Assembly: GCA_964016885.1 (NCBI GenBank)
Contig: OZ024765.1
Location: 14,632,001-14,696,000 of the forward strand
Direction: 5' to 3'
Length of the DNA stretch: 64,000 nt
Source of the DNA: Eledone cirrhosa
Lineage: Eukaryota
Part shown: piece after piece, positions 9,139 through 46,044 of the stretch
Layout: each line of letters starts with the position of its first letter
Numbering within the stretch: position 1 is the stretch's first letter
Program-made: the position numbers and the translations under genes
The notes under the pieces: generated by a model
Database searches by the model: none
The model's input: the letters and a program-made list of their open reading frames with translations, nothing else
What the model was told of the DNA's origin: nothing

Positions 9139-9155
9139 CTTACATATATAAACAC

Positions 9156-9253
<98 letters not shown>

Positions 9254-9263
9254 ATACATATAC

Positions 9264-9295
<32 letters not shown>

Positions 9296-9317
9296 ATACA
9301 TATACATATATATATAC

Positions 9318-9426
<109 letters not shown>

Positions 9427-9439
9427 CATATATATATAC

Positions 9440-9470
<31 letters not shown>

Positions 9471-9509
9471 CATATATATATACATATATATATATACATA
9501 TATATATAC

Positions 9510-9570
<61 letters not shown>

Positions 9571-9571
9571 T

Positions 9572-12500
9572 ACTATCACCCCACTGCACAAACTCCCATT
9601 GCTGCCATTAACAAACAAACAAATTAACAACACACCAAAACAATTAAAACCATCCACTCTCGCCTCTACATTTTTGCTTAACGCCCAAGGCATCAGCCCT
9701 TCCACCAATACTCAAAAATGGAAGATCAAATTCCTGGAGGACTGGATTGATGTCCATCCAAACCACATCCCTTTCTTCGTCCTCACTGAAACCCATCTCA
9801 GTAACCTCCACTTGGAAGCCGAGGTGAAAGTGAAAAATTTCAAAGCCATCCGTGCTGATCGCGCTGGCAGAAGAAAGGGCGGAACTGCCATTTATGTCCA
9901 TAATTCTTTCTCAACAGAGGCTATGAACATATTCACTAATGGATACTGTGAGGCAGTCACTGTATTCAGTCAAACCAACAACCTATTAGTAGTTGGGCTC
10001 TATAGGCCACCCCAAACGCCTGTACCATGCTTCAAGGAATGCCTCAACAGCATAAAGTGTTTCATCCAAGAGTGTCACCCTGACAACATCTTAATGATGG
10101 GGGACTTCAACCTCCCCGGAGTTGACTGGTCCACAAACACCCTGCCACCAGGTTCTTCTGCCTCAACCTCTGACAGGGAAGCTGTGGAATCGCTTCTTGA
10201 CTTCATGGATGATTTCTTCCTATCCCAACTAGTGCTCGAACCAACGAGGTGCCACAAAAACGTCCTAGACTTAATTTTCAGCAATCACACTGACAATATC
10301 CACAATATTGCAGTGGAGAAAACTCTACTCTCTGATCATGACATGGTTCTCTGTGATCTGAGATTCCACCGTCCAATATACAAACCCAATGTCATTTCTC
10401 CTGTCCATCCGTTTGACGCTATGGATTTCCACAATGCAAACTGGGAAGCGATCAGTCATGATCTTGCACATGTCGACTGGTCCTTCACGCACACTCATAC
10501 ACCCACTAACATCAAAAAGTCCTGGCAGACATTTGTGGACACTGTTACAAACATATGTGCTAAACACACCCCATTAAGAACTATAAACAAATCTAAGAGC
10601 AGAATCCCTAGAAATAGAAAAACACTCATCAGAAAAATTAAGAGAACGAACAAAAAAATCAACAAGCTGAAATACTGTCAGCAGCAACACATCAACTTGA
10701 CTGCCATTTCATCACTAGAGATTAAAAAACATAACCTCCAAAACAACATAATGTCCCTCATCAACAATCAGAGAAGAGCTGAAGAGGCCTGGGCCATTGA
10801 GAAGATCAAACTCAATCCCAAAGTGTTCTTTTCATTTGCAAAAAAACACAAAATCACTGGCTCTACTGTTGGCCCTCTAATTGATGAAAATGGCACTCTT
10901 CAAGACAATGCTAAAACCATGGGTGAGATACTGCAGAAACAATACTGCTCTGTTTTCAGCAATCCTGATATGGCCGATCTGGGCTGTATCGGCGATGTTA
11001 CTCCCCATTACACCTTATCGGACATAACGTTTGGCGCCCCTGATGTCTTGGCGGCAATAAAGGAAATCAAGCATAATTCAGCAGTAGGTCCCGATAGGTT
11101 CCCTGCTTGTGTCTTGAAGGCGTGTCAACACCAACTTGCTTCTCCTCTTGCCAATCTGTGGCGGAACTCACTGGATGCTGGATATGTGCCAGAAAACCTT
11201 CTATCCCAGTCTGTTGTCCCAGTTTTCAAAAAGGGAAACAAATCCCTTGCCGTGAATTACCGTCCAATCTCACTCACCTCTCATATCATTAAGGTATTTG
11301 AGCGAGTGGTGAGATCGCGAATGACCCACTTCCTTGAGAGTAACAATATGCTGAACTCCAACCAGCATGGATTCCGTAATGGAAGGGATTGCCTGACGCA
11401 ACTACTGCATCACTTTGATGACATTTTGAGAGCCTTGGGAGAGGGTTCCAACACTGATGTTATCTACCTTGATTTCAGCAAGGCCTTTGACAGGGTTGAT
11501 CATAACATTCTACTGAGAAAGCTGTCCAATATTGGTGTCACTGGAAAGCTGCTGCAGTGGATCAAGAGCTTCCTGTCAAACAGAACCCAACATGTTGTAG
11601 TTGAGGGAGTCAAATCAAGCCCAGCCAAAGTCAGTAGTGGAGTCCCACAAGGCACTGTGTTGGGCCCACTTCTCTTCATCATCTATATTAATGACATCAC
11701 TGACATCATCAAACACAGCAACATTAAAATTTTCGCTGATGATTCCAAGCTCCAAAAGGTCATCAATGGCGTGGATGACCGGATAAGCCTTCAGTCAGAC
11801 CTACTGGCTGTTACCCAATGGGCAGAAAAGAACAACATGTTACTGAACGAAGACAAATTCGAACTGATCCACTTTGGAAAAGAGGATGCTCTGAAACTCC
11901 CGTACTCCCTTCCCTCCGGGGAAACTCTCGTGGCATCTAACAACATCAGAGACTTGGGAGTAACCGTGGACAGCAACATAAGCTGGACCACGCATATAAG
12001 CAGCAAAGTTGACATGGCCCGCAGAATGTGTTCCTGGATCCTCAGAACCTTCCAGTCGAGAGATTCCCGCACCATTATCCTTCTCTTCTCTACTTTCGCC
12101 CGACCACACCTTGAATACTGTTGTCCACTGTGGTCTCCCCACACGAAACAAAGTATCATGAAACTTGAAGCTCCTCAAAGGGCAATCACGAAAAAGATAG
12201 ATGGCATGTCAGACCTTGACTACTGGGGTCGATTGGAAAACCTGAAACTTTACTCACTCCAACGTCGCCGTGAGCGTTATATTATCTGCATGATGTGGAA
12301 AATGTTCCATCATCACTGCCCAAATGATGTTGGCATCGCCTTCAAGATACACCCAAGGCTTGGGCCCCGTGCTATCCGTCCCATTCAAAAATCTAAATCG
12401 CAACTCATAACAACAATACGGCACAATTATTTCACCTCAATCGGCCCTGCTCTCTTCAACATCACACCAGGACACGTCAAAACAGAAACTGACCACACAA

Positions 12501-12696
12501 AATTCAAGAAGTCTTTGGACAAATTCCTCCAAGTAATCCCGGACAAACCACCCACACCCGGATATGTCTCCGCAAACAGTAATTCTCTTCTCGAATGGGC
12601 CATGGTGCCCAAATCCTGAATTGAAAGACTTCGCCAGGTGGTGCTATTAAGTTAGACATGGCCTGGGCCAATACTGGCCAAAACATTTCAAAGTTA
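9572..12696 (+). mobile_element. Non-LTR retrotransposon (LINE, CR1-group-like), 5'-truncated, inserted in (TA)n
   Basis: Uninterrupted APE+RT ORF, ~77-bp 3' UTR with a GGCCA-ATAC-TGGCC stem-loop, (TA)n on both sides, no ORF1 or 5' UTR. Confidence 0.95.
9599..12619 (+). CDS. LINE ORF2: AP-like endonuclease plus reverse transcriptase (1006 aa, no ATG start)
   Basis: APE motifs LNAQG, LTETHL, GGTAIYV, LYRPP, GDFN, LDLIF, SDH; RT motifs [49 protein letters not shown]. The frame is open back to the 5' junction at 9572. Confidence 0.95.
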
Positions 12697-32681: not shown

Positions 32682-32981
32682 ATCCCAAAGTATAACAATA
32701 TCGGTTTCAACACACGTTTTCAGATAAAGAATCTTGCTAAAAAAATTCAGAAACGAAATATATATATATATATGTATATACATATATATATATACATACA
32801 CATATATATATATACATACACATATATATATATACATACATATATATATATATACATACATATATATATATATACATACATATATATATACATATACTCT
32901 TTTACCTCTTTTACCTGTTTCAGCCATCCGGCTGAGGCCATGCTGGGGCACCGCCCTGGTATATATATACATACATATATT

Positions 32982-33012
<31 letters not shown>

Positions 33013-33189
33013 GTAATAATAATAAATTCGAAGACTAAAATCCATAGATAATAATAAATATATATATATATATATGTGTGTATGTATATATATATATATA
33101 TATACGTGTGTGTATATTTATATATACATATATATATATATATACATCTCTATATATATTTATATATACATAATATATATGTGTGTATG

Positions 33190-33272
<83 letters not shown>

Positions 33273-33550
33273 CAGCGTTCCTTTGTCAGTGTTGAACAAA
33301 CGAGCAACGATGGTTGCTGGACACTACGGTTTAATACGGGATGTTTGTTTACAAACACACCGAGCATTATAATAAATGTTCGGTGCATCCATACGTACAT
33401 ATATATATATATATGTGTGCATGTATGTATATATATATACATACTACTGAACGTCTGTATACATATATGTATGTACGTGTACATACTTATATTTAAGTAA
33501 CAGCCGTACTAAGAGTGGGAAATGAAATTTCGTTTCATTTTTTCTGTTTA
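33273..33550 (+). mobile_element. Dispersed, diverged partial copy of the 470-bp array unit
   Basis: Matches the reverse complement of 59051-59362 (CGTTCC..TGTCAGTGTTGAACAAA, GTTTGTTTACAAAC, ACGTCTGTATACATATATGTATGTACG, TACTAAGAGTG.GAAATGAAATTTCGTTT); (TA)n on both sides. Confidence 0.85.
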
Positions 33551-33554
33551 TATA

Positions 33555-33604
<50 letters not shown>

Positions 33605-33634
33605 CATCTATATATATATATTTATATATACATA

Positions 33635-33689
<55 letters not shown>

Positions 33690-33720
33690 ATATTTATATA
33701 TATATATATATATGTGTGTA

Positions 33721-33771
<51 letters not shown>

Positions 33772-33895
33772 ATATTTATATATATATATATATATATATA
33801 CATATTTATATATATATACATATTTATATATAAACAAATACACATTCTGTTATTGTGTTTAGAGTACATGTACCCCCGATGGCTCAAAACAACGA

Positions 33896-33926
<31 letters not shown>

Positions 33927-33950
33927 GTGTGTGTGTGTTTGTTTGTGTGC

Positions 33951-34045
<95 letters not shown>

Positions 34046-34308
34046 CTTATGGGTGCATAAACATATATATATATATATATGTATATCTATATGAATATAT
34101 GTATATATATATTTATGTATTTATATATATGTATATATACATATATATATATATAAATATACACATACATATATATATATATAAATATACATATATATAT
34201 ATATACATACATGCACACACACACACATATATGTATATATAAATATATATATATTTATATACACATACATACATACACACATATATATATATATATATAT
34301 ATACACAT

Positions 34309-34353
<45 letters not shown>

Positions 34354-34979
34354 TACACACACACATAAGTGTATGTATATATGTATACACATATTCACTG
34401 AAATACATATACACACACGCACACACACATACATACATACATAAACACGTATATAAACACATATATAAACACACATAGGCAAAGCTACACACCAATATAA
34501 TTATACACCTACACATGCCCCACCCTGTTACATGGACTAGTCCACCAATACTGTTACGACTCCCCACAGCTGAATTCTGGTCACGTAAACCTCAATTGAT
34601 TAAAGTATTGCAGTGAATTCCTTCCGCCATCTTAACTGTAGCAATAATAACAACAACAACAATAATAGTATCGAACGCAGCAACAACAATAAACAACATA
34701 GTGTATAAATAAATGTAACAACAACAACAACAACAGCAAAAGCAACATCGTATATAGCAACATCAACAACTGCAACAGAAATGTGTATAACAACAACAAT
34801 AATAGCAACAACTACAACAACAGGACATCGTATATAGCAACAACAACTGAAGCATAATGTGTAAACAACAACAAAAACAACAACTACAGCAGAAATGTGT
34901 ATACATCAACAAAAACAACAACAACTACAGCAGAAATGTGTATACAACAACTGCAGCAGAAATGTGTATACATCAACAG

Positions 34980-45388: not shown

Positions 45389-46044
45389 ATAATGTAAACA
45401 GAAATAACAACACAATCAGTACAGGATATGGAAGGAATATATTACATTAACGCTTGAAATAGCATGAAGAGGGCCTTATCGTTTCGGAAGCTAGTCCTTC
45501 ATCAGTAGAAAGAATGAAAAATAAGGTAGATTGAAGGGACGCGTGGGTTGGAATGGAAAAAAATATATATATAGTAGAAAAAATTAGAAAGTTTCGTTTG
45601 TATGTATTGGATTTTTATTGTTTAACGATCTGTTACTCGCGTTCATAAGAATGCACACTTTCGTTAATTAATGAGGAAGACGACTTCGTGGGCGTACGTT
45701 ACTATAACAGTTTCCACGGTCCCAATCCGCTTCTGGTTCACTGAGAGATGGAGCCGTGTGCAGAAGGTTAGGTAATGATAGTACACATTACGTAAACTAG
45801 GTGCTGGCGTCGTTTCGTCAGCGGGTTTTCGCCTCTCAGTTAAGGCGGGCCAACTGTCTAAGTTGCTGATAGCAAGGGAAGGTAGAAGCATGTCCTCTAA
45901 TAAAGTGTGACCTCACATCAAAGAGGAGGAAAGCCAGGCCTTACAAGGTACAGGGGATCACGTTGACAGTAAGTTCACATTGAAAAAATATGATTGTTGC
46001 CAAAAGCACTCAACCATTCTGCTTTCAAATAGAAAATAAATACA

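Follow-up and report, generated by a model that had tools for sequence, protein, structure and literature searches.

We found that the 5' ends of a family of ribozyme-bearing repeats are not fixed and form no peak at the predicted hammerhead cleavage site, and that the fixed 3' end of these repeats in TA microsatellites is real. One member, the copy at 33272-33551 of the window (the whole 64,000-nucleotide stretch of DNA analysed here), had been read in a first-pass annotation as the cDNA of a self-cleaved RNA. It is probably a randomly 5'-truncated non-LTR retrozyme that was copied from a monomer circle and, as seems likely, mobilised by a Penelope-like RT/GIY-YIG element.

The copy, the array and their family

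The features of the copy and of the array with which it aligns are as follows.

33272-33551, plus strand: the copy, one 5'-truncated arm of subfamily B that extends from unit position -1 to unit 275, the main fixed end
33273-33279, plus strand: 3' strand of hammerhead stem I (CAGCGTT), the first bases past the predicted cut
33493-33551, plus strand: 'tail' of about 60 nt between the second and main fixed ends, a predicted hairpin; start approximate, from consensus position 216-219
32960-33271, no strand: TA microsatellite, 5' flank of the copy
33552-34355, no strand: TA microsatellite, 3' flank of the copy and likely target
59049-60434, minus strand: the array, which is the direct arm of an insertion of subfamily A and has 2.9 units of 470 bp (99% identical, 36% GC)
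60435-60486, plus strand: inverted arm of the same subfamily-A insertion, from unit 204 to about 252-255, where it meets TA at the second fixed end
59356-59400, minus strand: predicted type I hammerhead whose stem III is the palindrome ACUAGU; the predicted cut lies between 59363 and 59362
59826-59870, minus strand: hammerhead copy 2 of the array
60296-60340, minus strand: hammerhead copy 3 of the array

The copy sits between TA tracts; window positions 33272-33282 read ACAGCGTTCCT, directly after the long TA-rich tract 32960-33271, and its opening bases on the plus strand are ACAGCGTTCC. Its alignment with the array (59049-60434, minus strand) begins at the A that closes the GUA triplet and continues to the 3' end of the array. 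The two 3' ends, at 33551 and 59049, both read TTTAT followed by ATATA/(TA)n in exact register, so that the 3' point proposed as common to copy and array held, and the agreement is far beyond chance. The proposed start at the predicted cut stood to within one base; the copy begins before it, at position -1. This A would be missing from a cleaved RNA and could be an untemplated or a flank base. We found neither a hammerhead core nor an inverted arm in the copy, its sole upstream 'inverted' match being plain TA. The 5' end of the array is at unit position 339, away from the cut.

The copy had also been described as a diverged relative of this array. It is rather an approximately 96% member of a sister subfamily, with 96.7% identity to the subfamily-B consensus (422 nt), which was built from 18 cut-to-cut units taken from the copy's matches. 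In a genome search with the copy, the 40 best full-length matches of 720 candidates were scored, the copy itself among them, and their identity to it was 94-100%. Together with the consensus comparison, this rules out that the copy is a decayed daughter of the window's array. The ribozyme was kept upstream of the cut in 24 of the 26 closest relatives that were scored (29 examined, 3 unscored).

The host genome of the window is 3.0 Gb, and the family to which both elements belong comprises thousands of ribozyme-bearing repeats in TA microsatellites. The unit is 470 bp in subfamily A, to which the array belongs, and 422 bp in subfamily B, to which the copy belongs; arrays reach at least 16 units. 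The B consensus and the array unit are 86% identical (354/412 aligned positions), by which we distinguish at least two subfamilies. Divergence is about 0.2% within A and about 3.5% within B. With subfamily A 99% identical and hundreds of dated insertions, the family is young and abundant. The unit has a GC content of 36%, below 50%, and is non-coding, its 135-aa frame having no Pfam match. We assign the family to the non-LTR retrozymes as a new member.

Some relatives depart from this pattern. A large heterogeneous subfamily-B array at about 110.0 Mb of a second contig (G000:C28, loci L043 and L051) looks like a satellite evolving after insertion, and a more distant short TA-flanked relative (L371:5616-5738) has retained the tail hairpin.

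The predicted hammerhead

The array hammerhead (59400-59356, minus strand) reads AACGGUG-CUGAUGA-stem II-GAAA-CUAG-UA/CAUCGUU, where the slash marks the predicted cut, and is present in all three units; a pattern search recovered the CUGANGA/GAAA core with its stems in each. Rfam returned nothing for it at the gathering threshold, the only match being a sub-threshold HH9 (E 0.026, 18.5 bits versus 52), and the 81-nt ribozyme region folded no better than its shuffles (z -0.79). Minimal hammerheads usually fold no better than shuffled sequences. Between A and B the 46-nt hammerhead has five differences, at N7, loop II and stem I, sparing the core and stems II-III (P about 0.015). A wobble pair in stem I is swapped from G-U to U-G (4/0/1/43 loci, Fisher P 3e-5), a P value that overstates independence since one or a few historical events may underlie it. 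The hammerhead thus looks maintained under constraint. Such maintenance does not demonstrate activity, and self-cleavage is predicted.

A third subfamily has a GUU cleavage triplet and often a U-A pair closing stem II (L113, L160, L169, L170, L172). Other hammerhead-like cores in the window, at 58708-58744 and 63682-63712 on the plus strand and at 17990-18019 and 45478-45505 on the minus strand, are probably ends of unrelated Penelope-like elements.

5' ends are not concentrated at the predicted cut

For each subfamily, 5' breakpoints were mapped in the 90 loci listed first, mostly on contig C1, with two duplicates dropped from B (L085, L090) and 11 direct arms left out that were cut off by locus edges or N. 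Among the 276 mapped breakpoints (167 in direct and 109 in inverted arms), two fell within -2..+3 of the cut, compared with 2.8 expected, and the arms of these loci cross the predicted cut 369 times. Taken alone, the sampled loci permit a several-fold excess at the cut (95% upper ratio 2.7 for A and 5.1 for B). The 5' ends of subfamily A were not quite uniform (chi-square P 0.03), with an excess in the first 140 nt past the cut; 17 versus 11 lay within 20 nt of it (P 0.06).

Genome-wide start patterns were counted with one design, consisting of two forced mismatches plus a 19-nt anchor in three-base windows. The window at the cut had 117 matches, the adjoining one on its upstream side 106 and the one on its downstream side 151 (binomial P 0.41). 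Nearly half of the first 'cut' matches (14/30) were not junctions but intact units with small changes; the flanking control windows carry the same false-junction background, and their matches were counted by pattern alone. A wider pattern produced 719 matches, the first 100 of which, judged by eye, were scattered from -12 to +7 and showed no step at the cut. By our estimate, the copies whose 5' end lies at the cut number about a hundred or fewer, no different from any other set of three positions, and the copy at 33272-33551 is one of them. Intact units across the cut number 10,608 genome-wide.

In R2-type elements a self-cleaving ribozyme sets the 5' end, and full-length copies begin at the cut. 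The interpretation given in the first-pass annotation resembles this model. In contrast, copies of the family described here run through the cut, and neither the mapped loci nor the genome-wide patterns showed the concentration of 5' ends at the cleavage site that belongs to a ribozyme-defined 5' end. The 5' breakpoint peak expected in the annotation was absent from the collected copies, the outcome that it had itself named as speaking against its reading. As copies of the family cross the predicted cut about 99 times in 100, the start of the 33272-33551 copy at this position is likely what chance would produce, in keeping with the earlier caution that a single copy might be coincidence.

Two fixed 3' ends and an inverted arm

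Exact end-plus-TA junctions were found genome-wide 2,828 times for B and 891 times for A, and reversed-pattern controls gave 0. Because the loci behind these counts had been chosen by the very end under test, we added a second set chosen on the ribozyme side only: 90 loci, reduced to 72 distinct ones by removal of 18 duplicates and to 68 uncensored ones by removal of 4 that were censored. Their arms ended at the main site in 29 cases, at a second site in 23 and elsewhere in 16, and TA lay directly beyond the end in 43 of the 52 arms that stop at either fixed site. The fixed ends are A314 and A252-255 in subfamily A and B275 and B216-219 in subfamily B, the second lying about 60 nt upstream of the main one. 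The proposal of a fixed 3' end in TA repeats was therefore confirmed.

An inverted arm was detected in 65/80 A and 49/87 B insertions with a 40-nt cut-off, at which some may be TA-only matches, and in 61/80 A and 48/87 B insertions when at least 60 nt was required. Its far end was found at a single position, A255 in 43/54 and B219 in 36/48 cases.

The template

Many direct arms exceed the length from the cut to the priming site (57/87 in B, 43/80 in A), and the predicted cut is read through up to 16 times per arm. Since such arms are longer than a linear cut RNA primed at 275 or 314 allows, the template must have been sealed, have remained uncut, or have been bridged by jumps. The RT would fall off about once per 0.7-1.6 kb in subfamily A; the fall-off rate drops with length from 1.4 to 0.6 per kb.

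Variants were compared among units in 53 A loci with at least three units; 8 occurred in all units of an insertion, 3 in part of them and 68 in a single unit. In the older subfamily B the corresponding counts were 42, 33 and 169, partial sharing being common. Five of the six variants seen in both arms occur in every unit, and each is found in only 1-2 of 47-65 direct arms; at L262 a two-arm variant is present in 9/9 units. Unit lengths agreed in 67% of comparisons within insertions versus 21% between them (30 loci), and in 76% versus 23% across arms, the latter from 7 loci only (permutation P 0.0008). Given these array-wide variants and lengths, a putative monomer circle copied by rolling-circle synthesis is favoured as the template, ahead of an uncut multimer. 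The shared variants could alternatively have arisen from many source arrays, each homogenised separately.

The cut itself is crossed almost without scars. No indel was seen at -1/+1 in 245 A crossings, one array-wide deletion excepted. A deletion just upstream of the cut was present in 92 units, and 11 of the 23 multi-base ones can abut the cut, compared with 6.7 expected (P 0.04, by-eye counts); microhomology and the ACTAGT palindrome would also account for this lean toward the cut. At L250 (G000:C1:184445920-184447808), where the unit period is exactly 465 bp, all five inverted-arm units are without the 7 nt directly 5' of the cut, with stem III and GUA gone. At L257 variants and unit lengths partly alternate with a period of two, from either a dimer template or a local duplication.

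Proposed mechanism and rival explanations

In the mechanism that we propose, array transcripts would self-cleave to monomers, which would be ligated into circles, and a Penelope protein (GIY-YIG/RT) would nick both strands of a TA tract. cDNA synthesis would start at two internal sites of the circle around the predicted hairpin, each with 3-5 nt of TA-like microhomology; the RT would go round the template until it falls off, and the two cDNAs would be joined head to head. The cut would then leave no genomic 5' end because the template is sealed there, and at 33272-33551 the RT would have stopped at -1 by chance. Several observations weigh against this mechanism: variants are often shared by only part of the units in subfamily B, the 5' ends of A are not quite uniform, the fall-off rate changes with length, and none of 50 GIY-YIG loci shares its ends with the unit. 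Whether a single event produces an entire head-to-head array, with both strands of a nicked TA tract priming at two fixed internal sites of the same circular monomer and then being extended by the RT in rolling-circle fashion, seems to us evenly balanced. Were this so, L250 would preserve in the genome a circle that had been mis-ligated, L257 would represent a dimer circle, and the insertions would be genomic footprints of a retrozyme life cycle that is so far hypothetical.

The reading that the copy is run-off cDNA of a self-cleaved RNA, and so marks cleavage in vivo, draws on its start within one base of the predicted cut and on its single arm, and the several-fold excess allowed by the sampled loci leaves room for a minority route behind one copy. 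We nevertheless consider it very improbable, as the -1 A is present, the closest relatives mostly retain the ribozyme upstream (24/26), and an excess at the cut is absent both locally (2/276 versus 2.8) and genome-wide (117 versus 106 and 151), where 14 of 30 supposed matches were not junctions at all. Slightly less improbable, but still doubtful, is a linear cut-to-cut monomer from whose 5' end the RT jumps precisely to the 3' end of the same RNA. Such a template would likewise produce a monomer bottleneck, and at the cut a few units do carry one A too many or too few, besides the 11 of 23 multi-base deletions that can abut it. The jumps would, however, have to be scarless about 99% of the time, as the 245 A crossings with their one array-wide deletion indicate, and for the excess of deletions the palindrome and microhomology offer another explanation.

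An uncut multimer transcribed from a homogeneous source array, with the same Penelope-type two-site priming and a hammerhead incidental to insertion, is a possible template that we regard as unlikely, with appreciably more in its favour. It accounts for both the read-through and the missing peak, long homogeneous arrays exist, and the ribozyme is dead in 5/5 units of L250. For the Penelope element PAc, passages of Frangieh 2024 (PMC11167929) report that hammerhead mutants insert normally in vitro and that no RNA-seq reads end at the cut; uncut RNA is described there as the dominant substrate and hammerhead cleavage as unnecessary in vitro, a result with which the missing peak agrees just as well. 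Against this, each array-wide haplotype would require a separate homogenised source array, and the 30 loci show many lengths and private variants; moreover, pure copying neither fixes a new variant in all units nor lengthens an array.

RT+GIY-YIG elements are present in the genome, one of them with a 938-aa frame ending in TA. A search for an autonomous partner sharing ends with the unit found none in 50 GIY-YIG loci (from 150 scored of 10,596 candidates). Three BLAST matches at GIY-YIG loci were considered as partners and rejected, being separate retrozyme insertions nearby. The element with the 938-aa RT+GIY-YIG frame (L361, G000:C1:145868500-145876500) belongs to a Penelope-like family, has a CxxCxxC linker and ends in TA; a pattern search found no canonical hammerhead core in it.

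Comparison with known systems

As far as passages of the retrozyme papers describe them (PMC7229834; 10.64898/2026.07.22.740005), animal non-LTR retrozymes consist, like the family here, of AT-rich units in tandem that are non-coding and contain a single type I hammerhead apiece; they range from sub-monomers to long arrays, are without LTR features and coexist with Penelope-like elements. A range of 150-450 bp is stated there for their units, and the present ones, with 422-470 bp, lie at its upper end or beyond it. Those passages give no insertion ends, inverted arms, TA targeting or two start sites. Cervera and de la Pena 2020 (PMC7229834) showed circles for other retrozymes and proposed tandem cDNA synthesis from them by a Penelope RT; expression and circles were demonstrated in those systems, whereas the circles of the present family are putative. 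Vertebrate retrozymes are linked to pLTRs in Li et al. 2026 (10.64898/2026.07.22.740005).

There are also resemblances to EN+ Penelope-like elements. According to Craig et al. 2021 (PMC8557442), these form partial tandems, have inverted 5' copies and a tail of 30-40 bp, and are biased towards microsatellites, and in the in vitro work of Frangieh 2024 (PMC11167929) two internal start sites define the tail of a Penelope element, both strands are extended and targets are AT-rich. In these elements as in the present family, tandems are partial and copies are truncated at the 5' end, an inverted 5' copy occurs, only one end bears a tail, targets are AT-rich or microsatellite, RT starts lie at two internal sites, and the hammerhead does not mark the ends of insertions. 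Unlike the elements in those accounts, it has no ORF and forms whole-unit arrays of at least 16 units; its tail is about 60 nt versus 30-40 (PMC8557442), and both of its start sites have TA-like microhomology to the target, whereas the PAc start site is described as non-homologous to its target (PMC11167929).

The insertions carry the Penelope signature that was established in vitro in 2024, together with the monomer bottleneck expected of rolling-circle copying. Whether Penelope-like elements move animal retrozymes, and whether the template is a circle, can be read from DNA here. Our literature search, cephalopods included, found no paper that maps retrozyme insertion ends in this way, with most subscription journals and supplements lying outside its reach.

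Other features of the window

At 9152-12619 on the plus strand, AP endonuclease and RT domains are encoded in a 1155-aa open frame, which represents an apparently intact LINE between TA tracts. At 58003-58500 there are about three copies of a 170-190 bp unit with CA/TA microsatellites between them.
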